43,428 nucleotides of DNA from a virus (Duplodnaviria; Caudoviricetes), in the IMG/VR virus record IMGVR_UViG_3300017766_001361, positions 1 to 43,428 of that record, one strand, 5' to 3'. The notes beneath the pieces were generated by a model. That model was not told where the DNA came from and searched no databases. It was given only the letters and a program-made list of their open reading frames with translations. How positions within the stretch are numbered: position 1 is the first letter of the stretch; every line of letters starts with the position of its first letter. Of the stretch, positions 3,660 through 43,029 are shown in pieces. The translations under genes were made by a program, and so were the position numbers.

Positions 3660-5950
3660 CAATAGAATCAATAGTAAAATTTGTAGGCGAAACAAACATA
3701 GCGTCAAGCCTTGATAAAGAAGAGCTTGCCAAGATTGCACGCGGTGTAATTGAGCGCGCCGATCAAGACAAGGCCACCATGAAGGATTGGGAGGATTGTG
3801 TTACGGAAGGTATCAAGCTGTGTAAGCCTGAGTTTAAATCCGGCAATAGACAGTGGCCGGGTGACGCAAACTTCAAGAGCACGATACTCACCGAGGCCGC
3901 TAACACGTTTGGCAATCGCGCCAGTGTTGAGGTTATGCGAGAGCTAAAGCTAGTGGGTGCTGATGTTATTGGTGCTGATACGGTGAAGGCTGTGATTGAT
4001 CGCAAGGCCAGTCAAACCAATCAGCTAAAGTCAGAGCTTGAGCCTTTAGTCGCACAAGTAGCGCAGATGAAAGAAGCGGGACAAGATACCGCTGAGCTAG
4101 ATGCCGTCATTCAGCAATTCCAGCAACAGATTCAAGCTAACGAGAAAACAGTCAAAGAAAAGCGCTTGGCAATGCGCAAGAAGTACGACAAGGCTGATAG
4201 AAGGTCAGAGCTATTAAACTGGCAGATCAACTATGAGATGGCCGAGTGGCGCAAAGACCAGAAACGGTTGTTCTACTCTCTCCCGCTGGAAGGTACGAAG
4301 TTTAAAGAGACGTTTTATGATGATACGCTAGGCCGTTGCATATCGAAAACAATAAAATGGCCTGATTTCATAGTCAATCAATCTGCAACAGATGCAAATA
4401 GTGGTAGGGCATTTACCCACGTTTGCGCATTCACTAAGTCTGAATTTGAAACCCGCGTAAAGGCTGGAATATGGGTAGGCGATGTATACGCCGAAGGCTT
4501 GCCAAGCGATACAGGCGGCAATGAAGAGAGCGACTCCGATAACGCATACGACAACAGCGACAAGTTCTATAAGCAGTATTGTTGGTTAGATTTAGACGAT
4601 GACGGTGTAGAAGAGCCCTATATTGTTACCGTCCACGTTGCGAGCACCACAGTAGTTCGTATCGTTGCCCGTTACGCAATGGATTCAATCATTGTGAAGC
4701 TTGAGGGTGGCCGCCCTATGAAGCTATCCGCCGCGAAGAAGTTACAGCGCTCGCGGATTGATTCTGACAATGAAGAATTCGGCACCAGTCTTGAATACCC
4801 AGCAGAAGATGACTTAAGTGAGTTTGAGGTGGTTCGCATTGAGCCTATGCCAATCCTAACTAAATACGGGCTAATACCTAGTTTCGATGGCACATTCTTA
4901 GATGTTGGTTATTATCACCTGATCGGCTCAATGTCGATGGGGGTGAACAAGACCACCAACACGCTATTGAACAATGGCGACTTGGCAACAATGAACGGCG
5001 GCTGGGCGGCTAAAGGCGCGAAGATGAAAAGCGGTTCATTCGCTGTTAATCCAGCCGAGTTTATCCAGACTGACATCCCGCCTGAGCAGCTAATGCAGTC
5101 GTTCATGCCTTTCCCGTACAAAGAACCAAGTCAGATGCTATTCATGCTCCTGCAGATGATGGAGCAGCAAGCGAGAGGCTTTAGCGCTAACGTTGACGCT
5201 GGCATACAGCCCAACACCGCACCGACTACCGCACTTGCAATGATCCAAGAGTCAATGCTCAAGCAAACCGCACACAACGCAATGATTGCTGACTCGATGG
5301 CAGAAGAGTTCAAAATTCTGTACATGCTAGACCGAGACTATTTTGACGGTGAGCGGTACAAAGAAATCGTAGGCGATGACGAAGCGGTCTTTGCAGAGGA
5401 TTTTGAGGAGGACGGCATTCAAATCACATGCACATCTAACCCAGAAACCTCAAGCAAGATGCAAAGAATGTTATTGGCTGAGGCAGAAATGCAGCAAGTA
5501 CCATTGGTAATCCAAGCGGGCGGTAACGCGGTAGAAATCATTAAAAACTACTTCAACCGCATTGGCTCTGAAAACACCGACAAGATTTTCCCCAACGAAG
5601 CTGAAATGTCGCCAGAAGACAAGGCGCAGATGCAAGCTATGCAGCAGCAACAACAGCAAGCTAACAAGATGGCTGAGACTCAAGAGAAGCTACTCACAGC
5701 ACAGACTGAAATTCTACTGGCCGGAGAGAAGCGCAAAGATGCTGAGTTTGAAGCAAGCAAGCAAGAGACATTGGCAGCGATTGATAAGATGCTGGCCGAG
5801 GTTCGCAAGATCAATGCAGATACTTTGCTAAGCGTTGAAAAGGCGCTTACTGAGAAGGTTAACAACGGGCTTTCCATTACTACCGCTATCAGTAGTGAGA
5901 TGGATAAGGTAGCAGAGCTGGCTAACGGGGAGATTGATGCGAATGAGTGA
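3656..5950 (+). CDS. portal protein (podovirus type)
   Basis: ~765 aa directly after terL (ATGA overlap); LDLDDDGVEEPYIVTV, P.PYKEPS, NTAPTTALAMI motifs; Q-rich coiled-coil C-terminal barrel. Confidence 0.85.
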   Translation: MTIESIVKFVGETNIASSLDKEELAKIARGVIERADQDKATMKDWEDCVTEGIKLCKPEFKSGNRQWPGDANFKSTILTEAANTFGNRASVEVMRELKLVGADVIGADTVKAVIDRKASQTNQLKSELEPLVAQVAQMKEAGQDTAELDAVIQQFQQQIQANEKTVKEKRLAMRKKYDKADRRSELLNWQINYEMAEWRKDQKRLFYSLPLEGTKFKETFYDDTLGRCISKTIKWPDFIVNQSATDANSGRAFTHVCAFTKSEFETRVKAGIWVGDVYAEGLPSDTGGNEESDSDNAYDNSDKFYKQYCWLDLDDDGVEEPYIVTVHVASTTVVRIVARYAMDSIIVKLEGGRPMKLSAAKKLQRSRIDSDNEEFGTSLEYPAEDDLSEFEVVRIEPMPILTKYGLIPSFDGTFLDVGYYHLIGSMSMGVNKTTNTLLNNGDLATMNGGWAAKGAKMKSGSFAVNPAEFIQTDIPPEQLMQSFMPFPYKEPSQMLFMLLQMMEQQARGFSANVDAGIQPNTAPTTALAMIQESMLKQTAHNAMIADSMAEEFKILYMLDRDYFDGERYKEIVGDDEAVFAEDFEEDGIQITCTSNPETSSKMQRMLLAEAEMQQVPLVIQAGGNAVEIIKNYFNRIGSENTDKIFPNEAEMSPEDKAQMQAMQQQQQQANKMAETQEKLLTAQTEILLAGEKRKDAEFEASKQETLAAIDKMLAEVRKINADTLLSVEKALTEKVNNGLSITTAISSEMDKVAELANGEIDANE

Positions 5951-6376: not shown

Positions 6377-6643
6377 ATGATTCTTAATTTCGAGCACAAG
6401 ACGCCAGCTAATTTTTACGATGGGTTGGTAAAGGTAGATGAAAACGAGGCAGCAATAAAGAAGTGGGGAATGGTTGTTATTGACTTAGACTCCCTGCCCA
6501 AAGATGCAATATTAATTAGCACTAAGGTCATGTTTAGTGCGCTTGAGGCTGGCTATTACCACGAAAGCTCAGGCTATAAAAACGATGAATTCTATTTTGT
6601 AATGGTTCCTAAAAAAGAGGTGATTAATGACAGTAACGATTAA
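6377..6643 (+). CDS. hypothetical protein
   Basis: 88-aa ORF tightly packed in the operon. Confidence 0.6.
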   Translation: MILNFEHKTPANFYDGLVKVDENEAAIKKWGMVVIDLDSLPKDAILISTKVMFSALEAGYYHESSGYKNDEFYFVMVPKKEVINDSND

Positions 6644-7010
6644 AGCAGCAGGCCATAAGCTACTGATTGAGCCTGTAAAGGTAAAGACTGTAAGTGCGGG
6701 CGGTATCATTTTAGGAGATGCTGAGCGTGAGAATAAGGCTATTGGTCTTGGTCGTGTTGTTGATATTGGCCCTACTGCTTTTGTTGGTGTGGCAGGTTGT
6801 GATCCTTCAGGGTATCCAACTAATGACCCACGCTACAAGATGGATGCGCACGAAATTTGGGGCGTAAAGGTTGGCGATGTAGTGATTTACAACCGATTCG
6901 CAGGCTTTAACCCAGATGTTCCAGAGTACAAGGACTTTAAATTTATACCTGACATTGAGGTTTCAGGCGTTGCATGCGGAGAGTTTGAAGTAAGCAAATC
7001 AGATTTTTAA
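6627..7010 (+). CDS. groES: GroES-like co-chaperonin
   Basis: IKAAGHKLLIEP..SAGGIIL, GRVVDIGP, VKVGDVVIYNRFAG match the Cpn10 pattern. Confidence 0.85.
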   Translation: MTVTIKAAGHKLLIEPVKVKTVSAGGIILGDAERENKAIGLGRVVDIGPTAFVGVAGCDPSGYPTNDPRYKMDAHEIWGVKVGDVVIYNRFAGFNPDVPEYKDFKFIPDIEVSGVACGEFEVSKSDF

Positions 7011-16531: not shown

Positions 16532-16543
16532 TTGGGGGTTGGC

Positions 16544-17125
16544 GTGAATAACTTTTTAAAGATGAGTGATGGCGCAAACGTTATGCCTTTATTGCTTGCT
16601 ATTCATAGGCTAGAAAAATCTCATGGCGCATGGAAAGAAGACACATATCTGCGCGATTACCCGCAAGGCCCATTTGGTGATACCGACTCAATTATTCTTA
16701 GGTTTCCAACTAGAAGCAATCAAGAAACAAAGGATGCGATAATCGGAAAAATAGAAGGTTTTGACCAGCATGAAAACCATGACCAGCCTGTATTTAAACT
16801 ATTACCAGAGGCGCGCCAGTTAATTTTCACGCTAATGGCATTCGTTAATGGCGAAAGGCTTGGACGCTGCATAATCAACAAAATTAAGTCTGGCGGAGTT
16901 ATCTATCCTCACTGTGATGGCGAAGAGCATGCAAATTATTGGGATCGTTTTCATATCGTTTTGAGTTCTAGCGCTGGGTGTAACTTTAGGTGCGGAGATG
17001 AAATAGTGCATATGAACCAAGGCGAGGTATGGTGGTTCAACAATAAAGTCGAGCATGAAGTTATAAATAACTCTGCCGATGACAGAATCCATTTGGTTAT
17101 AGATATTAGGACAAGCAAACCATGA
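16544..17125 (+). CDS. 2OG-Fe(II) oxygenase, aspartyl/asparaginyl beta-hydroxylase-like
   Basis: IYPHCD (HxD), RFHIVL, GEVWWFNNKVEHEVIN, RIHLVIDI; GTG 16544 preferred over TTG 16532. Confidence 0.85.
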   Translation: MNNFLKMSDGANVMPLLLAIHRLEKSHGAWKEDTYLRDYPQGPFGDTDSIILRFPTRSNQETKDAIIGKIEGFDQHENHDQPVFKLLPEARQLIFTLMAFVNGERLGRCIINKIKSGGVIYPHCDGEEHANYWDRFHIVLSSSAGCNFRCGDEIVHMNQGEVWWFNNKVEHEVINNSADDRIHLVIDIRTSKP

Positions 17126-30482: not shown

Positions 30483-30974
30483 CTATTTGATCAGTAGTGC
30501 GCGCTTGCCTTCGACAAGTTCAATATCAACCTTACCAGCTTTGGCGGCACTCAGAAGCGCGACTTTATCCAGCGATTTTGACTCAGGAATAACCTTGAAA
30601 TATTCGGCAGGCAATTCGCCTTCGTTTATGTCGTTTGGCAGCTTAAGACTGGCTTTTTTCAGCGTTAGGCTAAAAATCCCTAAATCCAGCTTATCGTGAT
30701 GAGTGACTTCCATATTGTGGCGTAGGTATTCTTCTATGCGCTCAATAGCGGCATTCTGTGCGCGCTCTAGCTTGCCTAGGCGCTCTTTCTCGGCCTTAAT
30801 AGCTGATAGTCGCATTTCAAGCTCGCGTTGCATCATGACGCAATTACGAGCCTTATCGTTGAAGTCTGCTTCAATGCTTTCTAGCGTGTCTGCGAATGAC
30901 TGCGCGTCAATTAGTTCATCGTCAAACAAGGATTGCAGGCTTCTGAATTGTTCGCTAATTTCGTAAAGTTTCAT
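30483..30974 (-). CDS. Siphovirus Gp157-family protein
   Basis: MKLYEISEQF...DTLESIE..F.DKA...IKAEKERL...LP.EY...LDK..L; adjacent to ERF. Confidence 0.85.
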   Translation of the reverse strand: MKLYEISEQFRSLQSLFDDELIDAQSFADTLESIEADFNDKARNCVMMQRELEMRLSAIKAEKERLGKLERAQNAAIERIEEYLRHNMEVTHHDKLDLGIFSLTLKKASLKLPNDINEGELPAEYFKVIPESKSLDKVALLSAAKAGKVDIELVEGKRALLIK

Positions 30975-31573
30975 TATTTTTCACCTGCTAGGTTTTTAAG
31001 AATTTTCATTACTTTCGGATAGTCTTTAGCATATATCTGTTCAGCCGATTGATAACCGCCTTGCGCAACGAATTCAGCCTCGTTCATGTTTGTTTTAGCC
31101 AGATACTCGCGCACAGTTGCAACTTGCTCAGAAGTAATTACAGCCTCTTGCAATGGTGCTTGTGCTGCTTTTGCCGGAGTCTTTGAGCCAATGCTTGCGT
31201 TAGCATCATCATCCTCTTGGGCAACGCCTGCAAACGCGGCTAGAGAGTAGCGGCGAAGATAAGTAATAGCAGAGCCAACACCTTGCGCATCTTGCTTAGT
31301 GATTGGGCTAGATGCTGTCTCGCTGATCCACTCGCCGGACTCGTGCATCAAAACGGTTTCAACCATTACCACGCCATCGGCAAAGCTTGGCATTTGCACA
31401 AAGCTCAATCCATTAGCTGAGAATACTGGACGCACAGTGTTTAACACCTCTGCAAGATCAGCGTACTTGCTTTTAAAGTGCGGGTTGATACTTGCTTTGC
31501 TGGCGTTCTCAACTTCGCCCTGTGCCATTGCTAGAGCCTTTGCGAGACTAGCAATTGATTCTGACTTATTCAT
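30974..31573 (-). CDS. erf: ERF-family single-strand annealing protein
   Basis: LAKAL..AQ, NPHFKSKYADL, LMHESGEW, QGVGSAITYLRRYSL, EDDDAN. Confidence 0.92.
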   Translation of the reverse strand: MNKSESIASLAKALAMAQGEVENASKASINPHFKSKYADLAEVLNTVRPVFSANGLSFVQMPSFADGVVMVETVLMHESGEWISETASSPITKQDAQGVGSAITYLRRYSLAAFAGVAQEDDDANASIGSKTPAKAAQAPLQEAVITSEQVATVREYLAKTNMNEAEFVAQGGYQSAEQIYAKDYPKVMKILKNLAGEK

Positions 31574-32176: not shown

Positions 32177-32389
32177 ATGAAATCAAGATGCACTAAAGAG
32201 GAATTGCTAAAACACATTCGAGCACAGATACGGCGCGAATATGAAAGCCAAGTTGAGGCTGCTAATGATATGAATCAGTCTCCACCATATTTAAATATGG
32301 CTTTAAATGGAAAGCTGAAGGAAATACCAGGCTGGCTAATTGAGCGGTTCGGCTACAGAAAAACGGTTGTTTATGAGCGGGTTAAGTAA
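32177..32389 (+). CDS. Cro-like helix-turn-helix protein
   Basis: SQVEAANDMNQSPPYLNMALNGK HTH pattern; first gene of the rightward operon. Confidence 0.7.
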   Translation: MKSRCTKEELLKHIRAQIRREYESQVEAANDMNQSPPYLNMALNGKLKEIPGWLIERFGYRKTVVYERVK

Positions 32390-32468
32390 CGACGCCTTTT
32401 AACTCGGCGTTTAACTAATGAAAATTTAACCGACTTACAAGCCGTCCTTTTTGAACAACTTGTTACAT
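32384..32468 (-). repeat. attC-like site 1 (degenerate left arm)
   Basis: AAGTAAC...CGGC...GCCG..TTGAAC-AACTT-GTTACAT; L-box pairing poor. Confidence 0.65.
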
Positions 32469-32492
32469 TTACTTTTTGCCGATGGGGGCGAT

Positions 32493-32789
32493 ATGAATTT
32501 ATTGAAAGAAACAAAAGAGCTTTTGGAGGAAAAAGGGAAGACCATATTTGACGTTTTATGGATTGGAACCAAAGACGCTGTTTGGGATGTTGATATTCAA
32601 CAGTTATTTAATGTTGATTACGATGATGGATTTGGAGTCCAAGAAATACCCGACGAGCTTATTGTTGTGGGCGAGGATTGGTGGCTAGAGCGCCATGAGT
32701 ACGATGGTTCTGAGTGGTGGGAATTTAATACAATGCCAGTTAAGCCAACCGCTATTAAGCAAGGCGCTAATTTATTGCAGCGCTGGTAG
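32493..32789 (+). CDS. cassette 1: conserved acidic phage protein
   Basis: GGGGG RBS; YDDGFG.QE...LIVVGEDWWLERHEYDGSEWWEF. Confidence 0.75.
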   Translation: MNLLKETKELLEEKGKTIFDVLWIGTKDAVWDVDIQQLFNVDYDDGFGVQEIPDELIVVGEDWWLERHEYDGSEWWEFNTMPVKPTAIKQGANLLQRW

Positions 32790-32792
32790 TGA

Positions 32793-32880
32793 ATGTAACG
32801 CCCATGTACAGCCGCGCCAACGCCGTACTAATTAAAAACCACGGCCTATGCAGCGTCGGTGCTGCTACGCCTTGTTATGA
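32793..32880 (-). repeat. attC-like site 2
   Basis: ATGTAAC-GCCCAT-GTACAGC ... GCTGCTAC-GCCTT-GTTATGA. Confidence 0.9.
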
Positions 32881-32899
32881 CCAATTACCGGAGTGAGAT

Positions 32900-33100
32900 A
32901 TGGATACAAGACAATTTATAGAAACCCTTTGCGAAGACGGTTTTGACAACAATTCCATTATTGATTTTGTAAATACAAAGCAGGCGAGAATTGACGAGCT
33001 TGAATATGCGCTAAGTGTTTGCATGTGTGTACACGATGACGCTGAAAATATGACAGGCGCACAGCGTCACGCATTGGCGATGAAGGTTTTAGACTGCTAG
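32900..33100 (+). CDS. cassette 2: hypothetical protein
   Basis: GGAG RBS; fills the cassette. Confidence 0.7.
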   Translation: MDTRQFIETLCEDGFDNNSIIDFVNTKQARIDELEYALSVCMCVHDDAENMTGAQRHALAMKVLDC

Positions 33101-33184
33101 TCATAACGCCAAGTTCAGCCCGTGGCGGGGAGTAGAGATTAAATGGCCGATTCTAGCACCATCGGCTGCAACTTTTTGTTATGT
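33101..33184 (-). repeat. attC-like site 3
   Basis: TCATAAC-GCCAA-GTTCAGC ... GCTGCAAC-TTTTT-GTTATGT. Confidence 0.92.
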
Positions 33185-33210
33185 GCAACTGTGCTTGCGA
33201 GGATTTAGAA

Positions 33211-33375
33211 ATGTGGTGCTGTTACTTCAAAGATGGAGAGCTGATAGTTTCAAGCTTGCGCGGAACACAGAAAGGAAGCCAAACTGCAGTTGTTAAAAAG
33301 CTAGGCTTTCAAAGCTGGAAGAATGCGAAAGATCACGGGATAAGATGTTACGAGGTTGAAGTAAAAAAGTGTTGA
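33211..33375 (+). CDS. cassette 3: hypothetical protein (54 aa)
   Basis: GAGGA RBS before ATG 33211. Confidence 0.65.
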   Translation: MWCCYFKDGELIVSSLRGTQKGSQTAVVKKLGFQSWKNAKDHGIRCYEVEVKKC

Positions 33376-33383
33376 TGCGACAC

Positions 33384-33470
33384 ACATAACACCCATGTTC
33401 AGCGGCGGCGTTTTACAAATTGAGCAGTGCGTGACTCTAACACCGTCCGTGCTGGAACTCCTTGTTATGA
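33384..33470 (-). repeat. attC-like site 4
   Basis: ACATAAC-ACCCAT-GTTCAGC ... GCTGGAAC-TCCTT-GTTATGA. Confidence 0.9.
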
Positions 33471-33496
33471 CCAATCAATCGAAGCGAGGTAGTGGT

Positions 33497-33664
33497 ATGC
33501 GAGTTTCAGTCAGGCAAGAAAAAGATGGCTGCTGGTATGTGATAGACGAAAAAGGCGTGCGCTATTCTCAGTGTGGCCGATGGTCAACAGCAGAGCTTGC
33601 GCAAGAGGAAGCTAGAAAATTCTTGAACTCACTAGGTTATAAGAACTGTGAGCCACAGTCATAA
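33497..33664 (+). CDS. cassette 4: hypothetical protein (55 aa)
   Basis: GAGGT RBS before ATG 33497; stop codon lies in the TAAC core. Confidence 0.65.
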   Translation: MRVSVRQEKDGCWYVIDEKGVRYSQCGRWSTAELAQEEARKFLNSLGYKNCEPQS

Positions 33665-33746
33665 CGCCCATGTTCAGCGGTGCCCTTGGGGATAGAAATT
33701 AAATACGCAACGCTAGCAGCATCCGCGTTGTAACTGCTTGTTATGT
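33659..33746 (-). repeat. attC-like site 5
   Basis: TCATAAC-GCCCAT-GTTCAGC ... GTTGTAAC-TGCTT-GTTATGT. Confidence 0.9.
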
Positions 33747-33757
33747 GAGGTGACGAA

Positions 33758-34450
33758 GTGGAATTTTGGAAGGATATTACAGGCTTTGAAGGCTTTTATA
33801 AGGTTTCAAATACAGGGAAAGTTTCGTCTTGCGATAGACAAAAAGAACAGCACGGAAGAAAAAGAACGGGCCGCGAATTAAGGCTGGAACAAAACAAAGC
33901 AGGCCAAGAGAGCGTATGCCTAATGGCTTATGGAGAAAAGAAAAAGGTTCTGGTGTCAAGAATTGTGGCGTCTGAATTTATTAGACCTTTGAAAAAAGGT
34001 GAATCTGTATTTCATTTAGATTTAGTAAAATTCAACAATAATGTAGATAATTTAATTATTTTGAAGAGTGGTAAAGATGTTATGGAGCTTGTAAATAAAT
34101 CTCTTTGCGATGGCTTTGAGAAAATAAGCAGGGATCAAATAACTGTTGAGAAAGTTAAGGAGTATTTATTTTATTTAGATGGCGATCTCTATTTTAAAAA
34201 GAGAACCGCATTAACGGTAAAGGTTGGTGAAAAATCAGGTTTTGCGCAAGAGGGGCACTGGAAAATACATTTGTGCGGTGAGACTTATATGAGAAATTGG
34301 CTTATATATTTTTTACACACGGGCGAGCGCAATGATTATGTCTTGCCTAAAAACGGTGATTTTATGGATGGAAGGGTTGAAAATTTATATTCGGTAAGCG
34401 CAAGCGAATATGCGAAAATCACAGACAGGGTGCAAAACATTCACACATAA
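33758..34450 (+). CDS. cassette 5: NUMOD4-domain protein with degenerate HNH-like motifs
   Basis: WKDITGFEGFYKVSNTGKV (NUMOD4); VFHLDLVKFNNNVDNL and PKNGDFMDGRVENL; GAGGTG RBS. Confidence 0.8.
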   Translation: MEFWKDITGFEGFYKVSNTGKVSSCDRQKEQHGRKRTGRELRLEQNKAGQESVCLMAYGEKKKVLVSRIVASEFIRPLKKGESVFHLDLVKFNNNVDNLIILKSGKDVMELVNKSLCDGFEKISRDQITVEKVKEYLFYLDGDLYFKKRTALTVKVGEKSGFAQEGHWKIHLCGETYMRNWLIYFLHTGERNDYVLPKNGDFMDGRVENLYSVSASEYAKITDRVQNIHT

Positions 34451-34578
34451 CGCCCATGTTCAGCGGCAGGATTTAAGGCGAATTTTTATGGAATACTTTG
34501 CGAAGCAAACCATAAAAAGGCGACTTAAAGACTGTCCAACGTAGCGCAGCGGAGTGGTGCTGCAACGACTTGTTACAA
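34445..34578 (-). repeat. attC-like site 6 (long, 134 bp)
   Basis: ACATAAC-GCCCAT-GTTCAGC..TTTAAG..TTTTTATGG/CCATAAAAA..CTTAAA..GCTGCAAC-GACTT-GTTACAA. Confidence 0.9.
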
Positions 34579-34648
34579 ATGTTTTACAGCAAAAAACTTA
34601 GACAAAAACGGCTTTTAATTTTTTAACTTTAATACAAAGAGGTTTTCT

Positions 34649-34807
34649 ATGAATTTAACAGACAGAACTAAGCTCGTCCTTGAACTAATGAAAGTAAAGC
34701 CTTCGCTAACAGCTGAGAAAGCTGCCGAAGAAATTATTTTGATTCAGAAATTGCTTGTGAAGCAGGGGTTCCTTGCACGACTTTTAAGCAAGCTTCATAC
34801 AGCTTAA
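34649..34807 (+). CDS. cassette 6: small ORF a (52 aa, absent from ORF track)
   Basis: AGAGG RBS; MNLTDRTKLVLELMKVKPSLTAEKAAEEIILIQKLLVKQGFLARLLSKLHTA. Confidence 0.55.
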   Translation: MNLTDRTKLVLELMKVKPSLTAEKAAEEIILIQKLLVKQGFLARLLSKLHTA

Positions 34808-34904
34808 GTCTTTCTAAGTTGGTGCCATTGCCATAATCACAGTTACGGTACAGCTTGTAAGCGACTTCTTCTTTTGAGTTAATTTCAAGATTTGCATCTG
34901 ACAT
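34734..34904 (-). CDS. cassette 6: small ORF b (56 aa, absent from ORF track)
   Basis: AAGGAG RBS; MSDANLEINSKEEVAYKLYRNCDYGNGTNLERLKLYEACLKVVQGTPASQAISESK. Confidence 0.6.
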   Translation of the reverse strand: MSDANLEINSKEEVAYKLYRNCDYGNGTNLERLKLYEACLKVVQGTPASQAISESK

Positions 34905-34943
34905 TGGTACTTCTCCTTTGGTGATGTGCTAATTGCACTGACT

Positions 34944-35029
34944 TTGTAACGCTTAGCGCAAATGCGCGCTGGGAGTAAGAGTTAAAAACCGATATTTAAA
35001 CCGCGTCATTTTGACGCTACTTGTTACAT
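34944..35029 (-). repeat. attC-like site 7
   Basis: TTGTAAC..AGCGCAAATG-CGCG ... CGCG-T-CATTTTG-A-CGCT-ACTT-GTTACAT. Confidence 0.85.
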
Positions 35030-35058
35030 TTACTTTTAACTACAAGGCGTTTACTAAA

Positions 35059-35232
35059 ATGGCAGAACAAACAGAAGTAATCATTCGGGCAAACTCAACT
35101 ATAAAATTGAAAACTCCAAGCGGAATGACTAGCACTTGGACTTACGTAAAAGGCACAACGGCAAAGGCTATGCTGGACGATATTGCGCGCTCACTTGGCT
35201 ACGAAGTTGTGCCGAAAGTTAAAAGCCAGTGA
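35059..35232 (+). CDS. cassette 7: hypothetical protein (57 aa)
   Basis: ATG 35059; fills the cassette. Confidence 0.6.
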   Translation: MAEQTEVIIRANSTIKLKTPSGMTSTWTYVKGTTAKAMLDDIARSLGYEVVPKVKSQ

Positions 35233-35396
35233 ATGTAACAGCGGAATCAAAGGGCCACCCATTAAAACTCCGACATTTAGACGACAAGCATCATTGATTT
35301 TATTTGAGTTTTTCAGTGTGTTTGTAGTTTTACGGCCTAGGCCGCAATTCCACAAAATCAGCACCAATACGGTGCTTTGAACTAAATAGGTGCAGA
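35233..35396 (-). other. attI-like terminal element, copy A
   Basis: Single core (GTTACAT on minus strand), no closing attC arm; homologous to 42866-43029. Confidence 0.65.
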
Positions 35397-35895: not shown

Positions 35896-36045
35896 ATGAA
35901 ATACCCATGCAAAACCGAAGAACAAAAACAGCGCTGCCAAGAGCTACAAGAAAAGGCAAACAGGCTAGCAAATAATATCAAGTATGCCAAAAACAAAAAG
36001 CTTGCTGTTAGATCATTCTTGCAATGCCTTTACCTGAGTATTTAG
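35896..36045 (+). CDS. small hypothetical protein (49 aa)
   Basis: ATG 35896 after GGA; follows the leader. Confidence 0.55.
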   Translation: MKYPCKTEEQKQRCQELQEKANRLANNIKYAKNKKLAVRSFLQCLYLSI

Positions 36046-36047
36046 CC

Positions 36048-36761
36048 ATGGATAGACCAGACGTATTCATGCCGCTTTATATTGGCGACTACCTCGCGGG
36101 AACCTCTAGGCTGACTACAGAGCTTCATGGTGCATACATGTTGCTGATAATGGACTATTGGATGAATGGCGCTTTGCCTGATGACAACAATGCGTTAGCT
36201 TCAATAGCCCGCATGAATTTGGATGCTTGGAGCATAGCTAGAGCAGTGCTTGAGAAATACTTTAGCATTGCCGATGGGGTTTGGATTCACAAAAGAATTG
36301 AAGAAGAATTGCAAAAAGCTGTTGAAAAGAAGTCAAAAGCCAAAGAAAAGGCAGAAAAAGCAGCTAAAGCAAGATGGGGAAATGCTCCAAGCATACCGCA
36401 AGCAATGCTTAAGGAATGCCCTTCACCTTCACCTTCACCTTCACATAAAGAATTAAAAGATATTGTTCCTACGGAACGCGAAGCTGTGCCAGTTCAAGAA
36501 ATAATTAACTTGTTCAACCAGTCTTTTGAAACTTTGCCAGAAGTAAAAATTCTAAGCGATAAGCGCAGAGCTGCAGTGAGAAAGCGCTGGCTTGAAAACA
36601 AGGGAATGCAAACAGTTGAGAGATGGGGAGAGTTTTTTGAATGGGTAAAAAAATCAGACTTTTTGATGGGTAGGTCTGAAAAGGCGTTTAGCATGACTTT
36701 TGACTGGATGTTCAACGCCACCAACTTTATAAAAATTTACGAAGGGAACTACCACAAATGA
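36048..36761 (+). CDS. replication initiator, DUF1376/YdaU-like N-terminus
   Basis: FMPLYIGDYLAGTSRL...HGAYMLLIM.YW; C-terminal SDFLMG...FDWMF...NF.KI.EGNY; upstream of DnaB; alternative start 36024. Confidence 0.85.
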   Translation: MDRPDVFMPLYIGDYLAGTSRLTTELHGAYMLLIMDYWMNGALPDDNNALASIARMNLDAWSIARAVLEKYFSIADGVWIHKRIEEELQKAVEKKSKAKEKAEKAAKARWGNAPSIPQAMLKECPSPSPSPSHKELKDIVPTEREAVPVQEIINLFNQSFETLPEVKILSDKRRAAVRKRWLENKGMQTVERWGEFFEWVKKSDFLMGRSEKAFSMTFDWMFNATNFIKIYEGNYHK

Positions 36762-38116
36762 GATTTTCGATAGAGGCAGAACAATCAGTCATAGGCGCAT
36801 TGCTGCTAGACCCTGCAAAACTGGATGACGTTTTAGAAATAACCGCCGATGCAGATTTTTACGGTGCAGCTAATCGCGCAATATTTAAAACAATCGTTTC
36901 TGTTTGCCAAGCTGGAAAAGCTGCAGATGTGATAACGGTGGCTGATGCAATGAGTGACGCAGGTACGCTAGATCACGCTGGCGGCGTTGGTTATTTGGTT
37001 GAGATAGCCAATAACACACCAAGCGCCGCGAATGTTAAATCTTACGCCTCAATCGTTGCTGAGAGAGCCATAGAGCGCCGCATAACCGAGGCAGGGCAAC
37101 GAATAGCCGAGATTGGCGATGATGATGCCATTGACGTTGATAGCAAGCTGGATTCGCTTCACGGAGAAATTGCAGGGATAGAGCGCAGGGATAGTGTTGA
37201 GCATATAACTTTTGACCAACTGATTAAATCACGAATTCTCACGCTAGACGGTAAATTCAACGGCACGCACCCTAGAGGCATGGAAACAGGGTTTAAAGCG
37301 CTGGATGAGCGATATGGCGGCATAGGCAATACCGCGCTTTGGGTTTTGGCCGCGCGACCAGCACAAGGGAAAACGGCGCTAGCTATGAATATCGCTTACA
37401 ACATAGCAAGGCAAGGGAAAGAGGTTTTAATTTTTAGCATGGAGATGGGGAAAGAGGAGCTTGGCGACCGACTAATGGCAAGCGCCAGCGGAGTAAACTC
37501 TAAAAAGATTCGCAGCGGAGAGCTAGAGGGTCAAGACTGGAATTCATTGTCCGCAGGCGTTTTGAAGCTTCGGCCGCTAAAAATTCACATTGTTGATATT
37601 CCGGCAATCGATATACACCGAGCCAAGGCCATTGCGCGCAAGTTCAAGCGTCACGGTGAAATAGGGCTAATCGTTATCGACTATCTGCAGCTTATGACTG
37701 ACAGCAAAGCCAAGAGCCGATTCGATGAGGTTTCAAGCGTAAGCCGTGAGCTTAAAGTGTTAGCCAAGATGATAGGGTGCCCAGTGCTTGCCTTATCTCA
37801 GCTTAACCGCAGCGTTGAGACAAGGCCAAACAAGCGCCCACAAATGGCAGACTTGAGGGAGAGTGGCCAGATAGAGCAGGACGCAGACATAATCAGTTTT
37901 ATTTACCGCGATGATTATTACTTACCTGACAGCCCAAACAAAAACACGGCTGAGATAATTACAGCAAAGTTTCGAGAGGGAGAAGTGGGGGTGGATATTT
38001 TAGGAACACAACTGCAGTTCAGCAGATTTATTGACTTCGACCCTTCAAGCTACATTTACAACTGGGAAGATAAAAAAACTAACGGATCAAGAGCTCGTGG
38101 CGGTTTTGATTCTTAA
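36758..38116 (+). CDS. dnaB: replicative DNA helicase, DnaB family
   Basis: EAEQSVIGALL, AARPAQGKT, FSMEM, IVIDYLQLM, LSQLNR, DLRESGQIEQDAD. Confidence 0.97.
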   Translation: MRFSIEAEQSVIGALLLDPAKLDDVLEITADADFYGAANRAIFKTIVSVCQAGKAADVITVADAMSDAGTLDHAGGVGYLVEIANNTPSAANVKSYASIVAERAIERRITEAGQRIAEIGDDDAIDVDSKLDSLHGEIAGIERRDSVEHITFDQLIKSRILTLDGKFNGTHPRGMETGFKALDERYGGIGNTALWVLAARPAQGKTALAMNIAYNIARQGKEVLIFSMEMGKEELGDRLMASASGVNSKKIRSGELEGQDWNSLSAGVLKLRPLKIHIVDIPAIDIHRAKAIARKFKRHGEIGLIVIDYLQLMTDSKAKSRFDEVSSVSRELKVLAKMIGCPVLALSQLNRSVETRPNKRPQMADLRESGQIEQDADIISFIYRDDYYLPDSPNKNTAEIITAKFREGEVGVDILGTQLQFSRFIDFDPSSYIYNWEDKKTNGSRARGGFDS

Positions 38117-38166: not shown

Positions 38167-38403
38167 ATGCAATCAAAAAAAGGAAGCGCCATAGAATCGG
38201 CTATAAATATCGCTATTGGGTTTGGTGTGGCTTTGGGTAGTCAGTTGGTAATATTCCCGCTCTACGGCGTTCATGTACCGATTGAGACTGATTTGGCAAT
38301 AACCTGCTGGTTCACATTAATAAGTTTTGCGCGCAGTTATTTTATTCGCAGGATATTTAATGGTCTAAGCGTAAAGATTTGCAATGATTCTACTAAACAA
38401 TAA
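38167..38403 (+). CDS. small membrane protein typical of phage methylase neighbourhoods
   Basis: MQSKKGSAIES..NIAIGF...FTLISFARSYFIRRIFN. Confidence 0.75.
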   Translation: MQSKKGSAIESAINIAIGFGVALGSQLVIFPLYGVHVPIETDLAITCWFTLISFARSYFIRRIFNGLSVKICNDSTKQ

Positions 38404-38417
38404 GGCGGTAACAGATA

Positions 38418-38630
38418 ATGAAACAACTAAGCACTTTCAGCGATAAGGAGAATTACTGGATTACGTTCATAGGACTTAGAAAGCAAATAGGGATATTGGA
38501 TAAATCACTTGCCATTGAGCTAGGAATAAGCACAAGGGCATTAACTGAGCGAGTATGTGGAAGGGCTGAGATTAAGCGCGAAACATTGCTGGCTATGGAA
38601 TATTTAATATTAAAAAAGGCACAGATATGA
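38418..38630 (+). CDS. small HTH DNA-binding protein
   Basis: LRKQIG....LAIELGISTRAL. Confidence 0.65.
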   Translation: MKQLSTFSDKENYWITFIGLRKQIGILDKSLAIELGISTRALTERVCGRAEIKRETLLAMEYLILKKAQI

Positions 38631-40030
38631 CTTTAACAACTGATATGTTCAAAAATGAAGGCGCTATTGAATTTGAAAATGTTGCTAGCGTGATTGGATC
38701 AGGCTATGAAAATGATGTTGCTGTACTGGCTATCGAAGACAAAATAGCTTACCGCGCAGCCCGTAAAAATATGCAAATACACTCTGCAATTATTTTAAAA
38801 GTGATGGGGGTGGTTTCTGGTTTCTTTACTTATCAAATTAACCATGACGCGCGTGAGTTTTGTTTGTTGCAATCAACTATTCGACCAGAAGTGTTTGATT
38901 TTGATTTGTACAAGGCAATGGTACAAAAGATTATCGAAAACAACACCTACGGCTATCCAATGTTTATTACCACAAACCCAAAAAGTAAATTTGAAACGCC
39001 AAAGTTATTTGAAAGCATTGGGTTTACAACGTACCTAGAAATGTCTGGTTATGCCTACATGGTTTACGGAGATATGGGCGATGCGCGGTTAAAGTATTTG
39101 GCACATATAACAATGTGTAATGTATGGAATTCAATTAGCGGGAAATGGTTAAAGGTTAAGCGCGAATGGAACGAAAAAATTGAAGCTGCTGGCGCTAAGC
39201 ATAATATTCCTAATCCTAAATTTGCCTCGCGTGATGGATGCTGGCAGGGAACAAATGGTTATTCTAATGTAGTTCTTGGGTCTCATGAAATAAATGAAGA
39301 CGGCGAAGTAGTACACAAGGTAGGAAAATCATTCAATGGTAATGCCTCTGTGCTTGACCCTGTCGCATGCGAAGTAATCTTGCGGTTCTTTATGCCTACT
39401 GACGGTAGCTTTGTTTACAACCCGTTTGGCGGCGGCGTACAAATGGGGTTTGTGACTGGAGACTATGGATACAAATATATTTCTAGCGAAATTAGACAAA
39501 ATCAGTGTGATGCTAATAACGCAATATGCCAAGACTTGAAAGGTAGCGCAAAGTGGATTAAAAGCGATAGCTCTGAATACGTGCCAGACGAGCGACCAGA
39601 TTTGGTTTTCACGTGCCCTCCATACTATAAAGTTGAAGAATATCTTGATTATGACGGCAATCCTCCAGAGGGCGAGCTTAACTCATTTCCAACTTATCAA
39701 GAGTTTAGAGATACGCTTTTCAAAGGGTACAAAAAAGCAATTGACGCGCTAAAAGATGATAGTTTTTTTGTTGTGATGACTGGTGATAGTCGTGATAAAA
39801 ATGGCGCTTATTATTGCTGTGAGTCAGAACATGAATTGTTTTTCCGTGACAATGGGTTACACGTTTACAATAAAATTGTTTATTTAGAGTGTGAATTTAC
39901 CCGATTAGCCCATGCAAAAAAGACTTTAAACTATCGCAAGTTTCCAAAGCGTGAACAAAAAATTATTGTCGCTTACAAAGGTGATATGTCAAAGATTAAA
40001 GACCGTTTCCCAACTGTAGGGCGTTTATAA
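38627..40030 (+). CDS. SAM-dependent amino-(N6A/N4C) DNA methyltransferase with GNAT-like N-terminal domain
   Basis: SVLDPVACE, YNPFGGG (motif I), SEIRQNQ, FTCPPYY (motif IV); N-terminal ~140 aa ends in LFESIGF. Confidence 0.8.
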   Translation: MTLTTDMFKNEGAIEFENVASVIGSGYENDVAVLAIEDKIAYRAARKNMQIHSAIILKVMGVVSGFFTYQINHDAREFCLLQSTIRPEVFDFDLYKAMVQKIIENNTYGYPMFITTNPKSKFETPKLFESIGFTTYLEMSGYAYMVYGDMGDARLKYLAHITMCNVWNSISGKWLKVKREWNEKIEAAGAKHNIPNPKFASRDGCWQGTNGYSNVVLGSHEINEDGEVVHKVGKSFNGNASVLDPVACEVILRFFMPTDGSFVYNPFGGGVQMGFVTGDYGYKYISSEIRQNQCDANNAICQDLKGSAKWIKSDSSEYVPDERPDLVFTCPPYYKVEEYLDYDGNPPEGELNSFPTYQEFRDTLFKGYKKAIDALKDDSFFVVMTGDSRDKNGAYYCCESEHELFFRDNGLHVYNKIVYLECEFTRLAHAKKTLNYRKFPKREQKIIVAYKGDMSKIKDRFPTVGRL

Positions 40031-40031
40031 A

Positions 40032-40868
40032 ATGGGTGCTTATGGTCATCAAATAACACTGAGTAAAAACTCTCGTGGCATTTATAGTATTGACCCGATA
40101 ATGGGCTGCGAAAGCGGCCTGTTACGAAATCCTAAAGGCTGTTACGGCGAGTGCTACGCTGCATCATATGCAAAGCGCTACGGGTATGACTTTGGTAAAA
40201 ATGTTAGGCGTTATTTTGATAGTGATAGCCATGCTGCAATGATTCGCAGAAAGATAAACCGTATAGAAATGCCTTTTGTTCGCATGGGCACTAGCGGCGA
40301 TCCTTCTGAGGATTGGGAGCATACTCTTTATGTTTTGAGCAAGCTGTACGGTATAACCAAGGAAGTAGTTATTATTACAAAGCACTGGTACAACTTAACT
40401 GATACGCAGTTGCAAACATTATCGGCGTACAACGTGTGTATAAATACTTCAGTATCAGCCCTTGATTATCCCGACACGTTAGAAAATGCGCTTGAACAAT
40501 ACGAAAGGGTAAAGCCTTATTGTAAAAGCGTTTTGAGGGTAGTTAGTTGTGAGTTTAATTTGGAAAATAAAGAGGCTAAAAGATTAAACGATATACAAGA
40601 AAAACTATTATCGGTTGAGGGTTATATTGATACTGTATTGAGAATATCGAAATCTAATGAGTTGGTATCAAATGGTATAGTAAAAATAAATGACTTGAAG
40701 TTTTTAGGAAAAAAAATTACTGCAAGCAAAAGAAATAAAAGCACTTATTTTGGTAAGTGCGCAAGCTGTAAAGAAATGTGTGGCTTAAATACTGGCGATA
40801 AAATAGAGCACAAGTTTAAGCCGAATCCTAAGCAATATGAACTTATAAAAACAAAAGCCATTCGATAG
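40032..40868 (+). CDS. radical-SAM-like Fe-S protein (SPL/DUF5131-like)
   Basis: DPIMGC..x9..GCYGECYA, VRMGTSGDP, IITKHW, INTSVSALD, C-terminal C..C...C. Confidence 0.7.
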   Translation: MGAYGHQITLSKNSRGIYSIDPIMGCESGLLRNPKGCYGECYAASYAKRYGYDFGKNVRRYFDSDSHAAMIRRKINRIEMPFVRMGTSGDPSEDWEHTLYVLSKLYGITKEVVIITKHWYNLTDTQLQTLSAYNVCINTSVSALDYPDTLENALEQYERVKPYCKSVLRVVSCEFNLENKEAKRLNDIQEKLLSVEGYIDTVLRISKSNELVSNGIVKINDLKFLGKKITASKRNKSTYFGKCASCKEMCGLNTGDKIEHKFKPNPKQYELIKTKAIR

Positions 40869-40927: not shown

Positions 40928-41197
40928 ATGTACGTAGATTTAAATACACAGTTCAAAATTAGAAACAAGGTAACAGGCGAGATTAAGACCGCATACCAAG
41001 GCCACAAGTTGTGGTTAATCGTAGATGAGAAAGGGGTTGAGATAATGGCAGATTGGGAAGTATGCGAAGATGTAGGCGTGTTCAAATCAATCACAGCGCT
41101 TTCGTCTATATTTTTTATTGCAGGGTTCATTTACTGGGTTTGTTTTTCTGAGTCGTTTTATTTGCGAGTTTTAAGTTTATGTGATGTTTGTAGTTAA
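40928..41197 (+). CDS. hypothetical protein with C-terminal TM segment
   Basis: AGGAG RBS; stop codon lies in the TAAC core of attC-like site 8. Confidence 0.6.
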   Translation: MYVDLNTQFKIRNKVTGEIKTAYQGHKLWLIVDEKGVEIMADWEVCEDVGVFKSITALSSIFFIAGFIYWVCFSESFYLRVLSLCDVCS

Positions 41198-41275
41198 CGC
41201 CGTTATAAACGGTGCGCAGTACGAAAATTAATAATGCGGTGTTCTATCCGCATCCGTTTGATGACTTTGTTACAC
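41192..41275 (-). repeat. attC-like site 8
   Basis: AGTTAAC-GCCGT-TATAAAC-GG-TGCG ... CGCA-T-CC-GTTTGATG-ACTTT-GTTACAC. Confidence 0.9.
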
Positions 41276-41298
41276 AAAACTAAACTTGGAGATTTACT

Positions 41299-41712
41299 AT
41301 GTTTGCTTTAATTGAAACTAACAACGCCACCCACATTGCTATTAATATTCCGCTTGATGGCGCAGATAAAACCTTACCAGCTCTTGCTGCAATGCTTGAG
41401 AATAACGCTGTATTTATCCGCAAGGACTATTCAAGCTGCCAAAGTGTTACACCAAAAATGAGTTTTATTTTAGGCGATAAAGTTCCTTTTGACACCTACG
41501 AAACGGAACTTGTAATTCAAAAATCAAGTTGCGCAATAGGTGAAGATTTTGTAGTTGAGTCACCCGATGTGATTGTCAGTAACGCAAAAGGTCTAAAAAG
41601 CAAAAGCGAACAAATTACAAAACAGAACACGGAGATTGCATTTTTAAAATCAGAGCTAGAAACACTCAAGGCTAAAATTGCAGAATTAAGCCAAGACACT
41701 GCGCCTGTGTAA
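41299..41712 (+). CDS. cassette 8: hypothetical protein with C-terminal coiled coil
   Basis: GGAG RBS; stop codon in the TAAC core. Confidence 0.75.
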   Translation: MFALIETNNATHIAINIPLDGADKTLPALAAMLENNAVFIRKDYSSCQSVTPKMSFILGDKVPFDTYETELVIQKSSCAIGEDFVVESPDVIVSNAKGLKSKSEQITKQNTEIAFLKSELETLKAKIAELSQDTAPV

Positions 41713-41789
41713 CGCCGTTATAAACGGTGCCAGTACGAAAATTAATAGTGCGGTGTTCTAGCCGCATCCGTTTGATAACCTTGTTAAGT
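41707..41789 (-). repeat. attC-like site 9
   Basis: GTGTAAC-GCCGT-TATAAAC ... GTTTGATA-ACCTT-GTTAAGT; near-identical to site 8. Confidence 0.9.
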
Positions 41790-41802
41790 TTGGTGGCTAC
41801 TT

Positions 41803-42027
41803 GTGAATATGTTTAACGAACACCCTGATTGGGTTGGTATGCCTGAATTTGTGCAGGAAAAGAAATATCCTTACAAAACCCTGATTGTTAGGTTTGAAAC
41901 AGAGCAAGACTATAATGATTTTGCACAATTGATAGGGCAAAAACTAACAAGTAAGACAAAAAGCATATGGCACCCGTTTAAGTCGCATTGTGGATTAGAA
42001 AAAAAGGTGTACAAAAATGCCGACTAG
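41803..42027 (+). CDS. cassette 9: small partner of the glycosyltransferase
   Basis: WVGMPEFVQE...IVRFETEQDY..FAQLIGQKLT.KTKSIWHP; overlaps the next gene. Confidence 0.75.
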   Translation: MNMFNEHPDWVGMPEFVQEKKYPYKTLIVRFETEQDYNDFAQLIGQKLTSKTKSIWHPFKSHCGLEKKVYKNAD

Positions 42028-42871
42028 ATACCCCGTGTATATTGTTTCAAAAGGTAGGTATAAAAACGGACTTACCACAAAAGCGCTTGATGTAATGGGT
42101 GTTAAGCACTTTATAGTTTGTGAAGAATTTGAAGCTGATTTATACCGCGAACACACGAGCGCTGAAATACTGGTTTTACCGCAAGAGTATTTAGATTCTT
42201 ATGATACGTGTGACGATTTTGGAAAAGAAAAAAGCAAAGGCCCAGGGGCTGCTAGGAATTTTTGCATAGACCATAGCGCACAATTCAAGCGCCATTGGGT
42301 TATGGATGATAATTTAGATGCGTTCCATTACCTAAACAGAAACGAAAAATTCGAGGTTGAGTGTGACGGGACGCTGAGGGCCGCTGAAGATTTTGTAGAT
42401 AGGTATTCAAATGTTCCGGTGGCAGGTTTTAATTATTATTCATTCTGCAAAAAGACAGATAAGTTGCCGCCGTTTATTTGTAATACAAGAATATATTCAT
42501 GCCTTCTTATTGAAAATGGCGCTGGCTATAGGTGGCGAGGTAGATACAATGAAGATACAGACCTAAGCTTGCGAATACTAAAAGACGGACTCTGTACAAT
42601 ACAGTTTAATGCGTTTTTGTGCGGGAAGGTTACAACGCAGCGAATGAGCGGCGGTAATACGAAAGAGTTTTATGATGACGAAGGCACATTGCCAAAATCC
42701 GAAATGCTTGCAAAGTTGCACCCAGACGTTGCGAAAGTTGTGTTTAAGTTTGGGCGATGGCACCACCATGTAGATTACAAACCATTCAAAAAAAATAGAC
42801 TTGTTTTGGCGGATAAAGATAAGGTTTATTCTGGTACTGACAACTACGGTATGCGATTGGTTTCAACTTAA
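42017..42871 (+). CDS. cassette 9: GT-A fold glycosyltransferase (TET-associated/GREB1-like)
   Basis: YPVYIVSKGR, GPGAARN, HWVMDDN, RIYSCLLI, WRGRYNEDTDLSLR, TQ...GGN. Confidence 0.75.
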   Translation: MPTRYPVYIVSKGRYKNGLTTKALDVMGVKHFIVCEEFEADLYREHTSAEILVLPQEYLDSYDTCDDFGKEKSKGPGAARNFCIDHSAQFKRHWVMDDNLDAFHYLNRNEKFEVECDGTLRAAEDFVDRYSNVPVAGFNYYSFCKKTDKLPPFICNTRIYSCLLIENGAGYRWRGRYNEDTDLSLRILKDGLCTIQFNAFLCGKVTTQRMSGGNTKEFYDDEGTLPKSEMLAKLHPDVAKVVFKFGRWHHHVDYKPFKKNRLVLADKDKVYSGTDNYGMRLVST

Positions 42872-43029
42872 CAGTTTATTCAACTGGTTGACCCGCGAAA
42901 CTACGACATTTTGACGACAGGCTTCATTGATTTTATTGAAGTTTTTCGGTGTGTTTGTAGTTTTAATGGGTAGGCCGCATTTCCACAAAAATTGAACCAA
43001 AATCGTGCAAAGCACAAAAGAGGTGCAAA
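42866..43029 (-). other. attI-like terminal element, copy B
   Basis: Single core (GTTAAGT on minus strand); homologous to 35233-35396. Confidence 0.65.

Follow-up and report, generated by a model that had tools for sequence, protein, structure and literature searches.

Two reversed, integrase-less integron-like arrays with attI-like ends in a freshwater phage

Two cassette arrays in the early region

The freshwater phage of IMG/VR record IMGVR_UViG_3300017766_001361 carries two arrays in which short genes alternate with hairpins resembling the attC sites of integrons, each array ending in an element that resembles an integron attI. The window analysed here is the whole 43,428-base record and includes terminase, portal, capsid, DNA-ejection, lysis, ERF, DnaB and nin genes. 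Array 1 (32387-35390) begins at the stop codon of a Cro-like gene, whose match to HTH_37 is weak and below the cut-off (E 0.0015), and array 2 begins in the nin region. The original prediction had described a single array of seven attC-bounded cassettes; array 1 is as it described, but the second array and both attI-like ends had been missed. All seven of its hairpins running from TAAC to GTTA were found (TAAC at 32387, 32796, 33104, 33387, 33662, 34448 and 34947), measuring 78-128 bp from TAAC to GTTA, and the ends that it gave for the cassette units, at AA|C, were correct. The features are listed below with their open reading frames (ORFs); E values are those of an attC covariance model derived solely from 12 sites in a Shewanella integron (phage M16-3), and z values compare folding with that of shuffled sequences.

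32177-32389, plus strand: Cro-like gene, whose TAA stop codon marks the left (attI-distal) end of array 1
32387-32465, minus strand: attC 1, in all probability defective; its left arm (32388-32411) has the opposite orientation to that of its hairpin family
32390-32798, plus strand: cassette 1; ORF 32493-32789 (98 aa), phrog_3972, unknown function; cores pair 8/8
32796-32877, minus strand: attC 2; L boxes pair 7/7; E 5.8; fold z +0.4
32799-33106, plus strand: cassette 2; ORF 32900-33100 (66 aa), no known function
33104-33181, minus strand: attC 3; E 8e-5; belongs to a common phage hairpin family
33107-33389, plus strand: cassette 3; ORF 33211-33375 (54 aa), no known function
33387-33467, minus strand: attC 4; E 0.0025; minimum-energy fold of attC type
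33390-33664, plus strand: cassette 4; ORF 33497-33664 (55 aa), no known function
33662-33743, minus strand: attC 5; E 0.0012
33665-34450, plus strand: cassette 5; NUMOD4-HNH endonuclease ORF 33758-34450 (230 aa), PF07463, phrog_1492
34448-34575, minus strand: attC 6, 128 bp; from an attC family resident in bacterial chromosomal integrons; z -4.0
34451-34949, no strand assigned: cassette 6; overlapping ORFs 34649-34807 (plus, 52 aa) and 34734-34904 (minus, 56 aa, bacterial polarity)
34947-35026, minus strand: attC 7; E 0.0004; attC-type fold
34950-35238, plus strand: cassette 7, attI-proximal; ORF 35059-35232 (57 aa)
35236-35390, minus strand: attI-like site of array 1 (attI 1); predicted crossover 35238/35239; aligns with intI-adjacent sites
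41195-41272, minus strand: attC 8; E 0.002; start of array 2, nin region
41198-41712, plus strand: cassette 8; ORF 41299-41712 (137 aa), no known function; cores pair 8/8
41710-41786, minus strand: attC 9; E 1.4e-5
41713-42871, plus strand: cassette 9; ORF 41809-42027 and TET-associated glycosyltransferase 42017-42871, PF20691
42869-43025, minus strand: attI-like site of array 2 (attI 2); predicted crossover 42871/42872

Although CheckV enters the record as linear and 71% complete, its first five bases are the same as its last five, and a terminal ORF runs in frame across the joined ends into ninB, the two pieces being contiguous in four relatives. On the basis of this join the window is treated as a whole, circular genome, in agreement with the predicted completeness.

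Absence of a phage recombinase

No tyrosine recombinase was detected in the window by Pfam searches of the called ORFs, by a six-frame search with PF00589 or with an IntI query, even at E 10, and the prediction held on this point too. Such enzymes occur in 3 of 70 related records; two lie in array-bearing records and do not match TIGR02249, and the third is in a record that has no array. None was present in the array-bearing records that are at least 90% complete (0 of 6). Several large ORFs of the window belong to no family, and these, with the few recombinases among the relatives, are what could be said for recombination by an unrecognised phage protein or by the recombinase of a co-infecting element. 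We consider that very improbable, in view of the negative searches, the failure of the two recombinases to match TIGR02249, the IntI type of the sites and the position of the attI family beside intI in bacteria.

Hairpins with the anatomy of attC sites

Within each module the core before the gene is the exact 8-bp reverse complement of the core after it; this had been predicted for the seven genes of array 1, was confirmed in 7/7 cases, and extends to all nine modules of the two arrays. For array 1 the probability of such pairing by chance is 0.0016 with its cores permuted within the array and 5e-8 from pooled core frequencies. Relatives, gathered by pattern and protein scans of viral contigs, supply about 54 non-redundant arrays with 2-14 sites each, a few small ones being perhaps spurious. 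Across 38 of their arrays, which come from 37 of the 70 sources scanned, 137 of 182 segments match in 4/4 variable core letters across the gene and 6 of 182 match within one hairpin. The same pairing across the gene is seen in a true integron (Shewanella-type, phage M16-3) and so represents the normal footprint of a cassette. The array detector returned no array from eight shuffled windows.

At E<=0.0025 the Shewanella attC model recovers seven of the nine hairpins of the window, every one of them on the minus strand, with attC 9 as the best match; its best match elsewhere in the window reaches only E 0.19. The model finds no site in the attC cluster of Tetrasphaera phage TJE1, so it overlooks some real attC. 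A search of the window with Rfam gave no match. The L'' and L' boxes, examined for pairing with an extrahelical base and 5-6 bp spacers as in attC, pair at 6-7 of 7 positions in eight window sites and at only 4/7 in attC 1. When sites were chosen solely on their left arm, L-box pairing averages 6.4 of 7 in 122 of 143 of them, compared with 3.1 across families. The attC model, the core pairing and the covariation of the L boxes all bear out the earlier proposal that the hairpins are attC sites, and we treat them as probable attC. Stems extended beyond the 8-bp cores were considered and rejected, complementarity falling to 0.2-0.4 after position 8. Some hairpins of about 110 bp (L010 3227-3339 and 4758-4870; L011 5275-5387) include the beginning of the following ORF together with its ribosome-binding site.

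The inverted arm of attC 1 matches ten members of its hairpin family at 19-23 of 24 positions on the other strand and at 12-17 as it stands. It is also found in run X3 and is therefore not an assembly slip. The inversion sits between 4-bp inverted ends.

Genes on the opposite strand from those of bacterial integrons

The gene strand at the sites of the M16-3 integron reads TAACAA...GCGTTA; the gene strand of the window is the reverse of this and the same as published attC bottom strands. By this comparison the plus strand of the window reads as the attC bottom strand, with its genes on the recombinogenic strand and the predicted crossover at AA|C on plus. The attC-bounded cassettes of the original prediction stand, with the addition of this reversal, which it had left unstated. 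Of 266 phage modules, 248 have their longest ORF reversed, 15 have it in the normal orientation and 3 are undecided; at bacterial loci the orientation is normal in 17/17 modules.

Replication polarity was rejected as the main cause of the orientation: the arrays lie on either side of the replication genes and yet have the same polarity, and the site in L240 flips (n=1). That site (5001-5079) is a lone attC in a divergent early arm that is flipped along with its genes. The replication genes lie between the arrays:

36024-38116, plus strand: replication initiator-like gene and DnaB helicase

Hairpins of 127 bp belonging to the bacterial attC family are coupled to genes in the phage (reversed) polarity in L115, L144, L161, L168 and L136. 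Several cassettes, in L166 and L258 (a 592-bp module), L247, L161, L165, L267 and L127, combine a long leader, in which promoter-like boxes occur, with a 3' ORF that is conserved; these cassettes are perhaps self-expressed two-gene units.

attI-like ends and their bacterial kin

Both array-end elements are about 150 bp long, begin with TAACAG and are not hairpins of the attC kind; they are identical to one another in 124 of 168 alignment columns. An element of this sort is present at 37 of 44 resolved array ends in phages. The first 16 bases of attI 2 are identical to sites lying 177 bp (G073) and 282 bp (G071) from intI in bacterial genomes, with normal cassettes on the other side. A genome scan with the attI core gave 24 loci, 13 of which, in five genomes (G071-G075), continue like the phage elements; these genomes are Cellvibrio sp., Pseudomonadales and other Gammaproteobacteria or Pseudomonadota bins. 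An IntI above the TIGR02249 cut-off is encoded in 5/5 of them. In G071, G072, G073 and G075 the distance between intI and the core family is 177-282 bp, near-identical cores adjoining intI in G072 and G075. Judged by the position of these counterparts beside intI, the array-end elements would be attI sites. No integrase other than the cognate one is reported to recognise an attI (PMC2095811).

The two elements contain repeated CCGTATAT-like motifs (35290-35380 and 42925-43010), which are possible accessory binding sites. The same intervals hold a partial IHF-like box, another possible accessory site. Motifs resembling LexA boxes, which are annotated in M16-3, stand at 5 of the 6 intI starts compared. 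G071 has at least seven attI copies (L180, L183, L189, L191, L197, L199), most without an intact intI; one copy adjoins a truncated intI.

A second connection with bacteria is attC 6, which is 81-85% identical to bacterial copies and has 31 matches in G072, five in G075, three in G073, two in G074 and none in G071. The overlapping ORFs of cassette 6 have only one homologue each (77% and 90%), either of the two may be the real gene, and the cassette is possibly host-derived. A comparison of the cassette genes with the five bacterial genomes gave no match.

Exchange of cassettes among relatives

The two loci carry other cassettes in L010, L289, L141 and L128, amounting to about 14 at the array-1 locus of L010. 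In L289 the homologue of the Cro-like gene also has its break at TAA|C, with other cassettes after it and a homologous attI at the array end; the genes flanking array 2 bound other arrays in L141, L128 and L169. Cassette 9 is common to the window and L011 from TAAC to TAAC, hairpin included. L010 holds a 90% identical cassette 7 module in first rather than last position, with other hairpins on both sides, and copies of the attC 3 hairpin precede other genes in L010 and L011. In run X4 a homologue of cassette 1 adjoins an attI-like end at 32799. No GenBank phage record was found with the array of the window or with attI 2.

In 28 homologous module pairs the homology spans from core to core. The upstream hairpin is shared (>=0.75) in 10 of 24 informative pairs and the downstream hairpin in 0 of 24, against a background of 3%. 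Shared modules end downstream at TAAC in all pairs, which is the outcome expected from the prediction that breakpoints fall at AA|C, and where the upstream hairpin is kept the homology stops at the TAAC of that hairpin; because TAACGC is conserved, the resolution is only a few bases. The pattern points to a unit composed of a hairpin and the gene downstream of it, which is a reversed cassette.

Cassette proteins number 265 in 220 clusters. Among 211 representatives, 29 of the 100 longest match PHROGs, including DNA methyltransferases, PAPS-reductase-like proteins, RNA ligase, polynucleotide kinase, exonuclease and a Lar-like protein. PADLOC, run on 11 cassette ORFs, matched only a homing endonuclease. 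Host integrons are reported to store anti-phage genes (10.1101/2024.07.02.601686, 10.1101/2024.07.02.601719), and a phage that used its host's enzyme for its own accessory genes would turn that system against the host; the arrays would then supply about 220 small proteins as candidates for counter-defence.

A piece of host chromosomal integron captured once by illegitimate recombination and now decaying might have been suspected from the bacterial family of attC 6 and the broken state of attC 1. Such an origin is hardly credible beside the reversal of phage genes (none of the 17 bacterial cassettes is reversed), the diversity of the cassette proteins, their absence from the five bacterial genomes and the phage type of the annotated cargo; modules that are 100% identical in different neighbourhoods, together with the turnover among relatives, largely refute it.

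Exchange of hairpins and reading frames within cassettes

In 12 of the 24 pairs the same gene follows an unrelated upstream hairpin, and identity stops 0-6 bases to the left of G|TT; two different hairpins precede copies of a 275-bp module that are 100% identical. The predicted unit of hairpin plus gene is kept in 10 pairs and has its hairpin replaced in 12, so that it is no constant unit in these phages. IntI is reported to cut the top strand at the AAC of R'', with a selectivity that varies between sites (PMC5027507), and top-strand excision between two sites would yield exactly the hairpin swaps observed. Annealing in shared leaders explains them about as well, and the window encodes a candidate for it:

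30974-31573, minus strand: ERF single-strand annealing protein, PF04404; candidate for homology-based swaps

In the strongest form of this alternative the ERF annealase does most of the shuffling of the arrays through short shared hairpin arms and leaders, and the attC and attI shapes are relics of an ancient capture kept as RNA or spacing elements. The hairpins fall into families, unrelated modules share a leader of about 15 nucleotides (nt) on average, and an annealase easily accommodates the exchange of hairpins and ORFs; a swap behind the broken site 1 in run X3 fits it, and the folding of the hairpins is weak. It does not account for downstream breaks at TAAC, for upstream homology that ends at TAAC when the hairpin is kept, or for the maintenance of 8-bp core pairing, L-box covariation and attI cores over about 54 arrays. 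Nor are the shared leaders of swapped pairs much longer than those of kept pairs (18.1 and 16.5 nt), a measure that does not separate top-strand IntI from an annealase as the cause of the swaps. We judge the annealase-and-relic alternative unlikely.

Exchange also reaches the ORF itself. A shell with a leader of 46-48 nt and a trailer of 33-35 nt is found in nine modules with seven unrelated ORFs, which are replaced from start codon to stop codon and stand behind five types of hairpin left arm:

Shell modules: L010 (2785-3230), L243, L269, L144, L161, L172, L162, L127 and L204

There are 89 module pairs with unrelated ORFs that share both ends. Window cassettes 2, 3, 4, 5 and 7 have leaders of 21-33 nt in common with other modules, and that of the NUMOD4-HNH cassette 5 (21-22 nt) recurs ahead of other genes; bacterial modules, a small sample of 17, have no more than 14 nt in common. 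Members of one gene family stand outside any cassette in the window (38167-38403) and inside one in L010, with 58% identity. No near-identical free copies of cassette genes, above about 70% and truly outside cassettes, were found; some apparent free copies are missed sites or decayed cassettes.

The new combinations of gene, hairpin and leader may show how new cassettes are made. The origin of new cassettes is stated to be unknown (PMC4889954, PMC8618304), and identical genes with different attC, along with a shell holding seven ORFs, are concrete intermediates that make the question testable. We put forward only tentatively the idea of an integron that is reversed, parasitic and at the same time a cassette factory, in which host IntI would act on both strands of weakly selective hairpins, so that hairpin, shell and ORF would be exchanged separately and phage genes packaged as cassettes; the reversal would silence host defence cassettes in the phage and phage cassettes in the host.

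A probable host integrase acting in trans

We think it probable that the phage carries two integrase-less, reversed integron platforms in its early region on which a host IntI acts in trans. The footing is the anatomy of the sites, the polarity of the genes, the kinship of attI, the lack of a recombinase and the exchange at AA|C among relatives, all of them features of the sequence. Use of a host integron integrase in trans had been predicted, and attI kinship, attC type and the absence of a phage recombinase support it. In each platform a series of attC cassettes would lead up to a host-type attI, and the host enzyme would bring in, take out and rearrange accessory genes of the phage. Cutting at AA|C would take place on the gene-sense (bottom) strand in its folded form, cassette circles would enter at the promoter-distal attI end, and the cassette genes would be read from phage early promoters. 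Ordinary cassettes from bacteria, of which many are anti-phage, would insert in antisense orientation and be silent. A rarer second exchange at the other core, by top-strand IntI or ERF-type annealing, would re-pair genes with hairpins, and replacement of ORFs inside reused leaders and trailers would give new cassettes.

Several observations weigh against this reading. With the Shewanella model attC 1 (E 0.37) and attC 2 (E 5.8) are not significant. Folding of each hairpin, a check that the prediction had proposed, gave the attC-type fold as the minimum-energy fold in four of nine sites and not in the other five, and attC 6 alone does better than shuffles (z -4.0), the other eight lying between z +0.4 and -1.9. 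In run X3 the Cro end and hairpin 1 are kept (2 differences in 128) and are followed by 237 other letters, so that another gene stands behind the broken site 1, which is poorly explained by an IntI fold. The module pairs are not independent, the modules were chosen for matching cores, and no circle junction was seen in assembled contigs. A promoter scan of the window gave fewer hits than chance (7 found, 10.3 expected). On the bacterial side, attI 1 departs from the bacterial attI core at several letters, 11 of the 24 genomic loci with the core look like chance, and intI of the Cellvibrio genome G074 has a different kind of flank. As for the host of the phage, Cellvibrionaceae are not supported as a family, the attI pattern occurring in 7 of 151 of its genomes against 6 control matches, and a search for DnaB homologues indicated no host. 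A DnaB search of metagenomes gave, besides the record of the window, two relatives, both short, and 77 helicases that are distant, none of them of use.

A DNA methyltransferase-like gene and a 278-aa ORF without known family (38627-40868) lie between the arrays, and together with the TET-associated glycosyltransferase of cassette 9 (42017-42871) they suggest a DNA-modification set; in L011 a methyltransferase-like ORF is interrupted by an internal stop. The head module has a GroES-like ORF (6627-7010), and an Asp/Asn beta-hydroxylase-like ORF (16532-17125) adjoins the tail fibre gene.

Comparison with known systems

By definition the arrays of the window, with seven and two attC and no intI, are CALINs (attC clusters that have no integron-integrase) and not complete integrons, though they would work like an integron in trans. 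They have an attI-like site at the array head, where a complete integron has its attI, but there is no intI beside the array, and the genes are not on the attC top strand to be read from the promoter Pc beside attI. A CALIN as defined by Cury et al. 2016 (PMC4889954) likewise has at least two attC without a nearby intI; the window differs from that class in keeping attI, in its active-looking turnover, in its phage location and in its reversed genes.

Sedentary chromosomal integrons (the Shewanella type of M16-3 and those of G071-G075) share with the window the attC anatomy, the 8-bp core pairing, the attI core family and one attC family. The window differs from them in having no intI, in genes that are antisense to attC, in a promoter-distal attI and in a phage-type cargo. 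Its relatives also show a weaker preference for the bottom strand, which is lower in energy than the top in 161 of 260 phage sites and 23 of 27 bacterial sites; the advantage is -0.5 and -2.6 kcal/mol respectively, for sites that are related and of unequal lengths.

The prediction had left the novelty of such arrays in phages to a literature check. Clusters of attC in phages are already published: Qi et al. 2023 (PMC9892861) report 17 CALINs in 10,705 phage genomes and recombination with IntI1 of 5 of 6 tested sites. Pseudoalteromonas phage PH101 of that study has an integrase-less attC cluster like those of the window. Its sites (KR534323 76528-77990, L301) are opposite to the annotated genes, as in the window, and those of TJE1 have normal polarity; the PH101 cluster also contains duplicated hairpin-plus-leader blocks. 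By analogy, the recombination of PH101 sites with IntI1 (PMC9892861) argues for a host IntI acting on the window's sites, which have the same polarity. The accessible parts of that paper carry no remark on reversed genes, show no turnover among relatives and mention attI only in the Shewanella prophage M16-3 and a class 1 case. Within the literature covered, subscription papers being outside it, no description turned up of phage arrays that are reversed and carry attI. Compared with PH101 and TJE1, the window has two arrays, a host-type attI, about 54 related arrays, and swaps of hairpins and ORFs.

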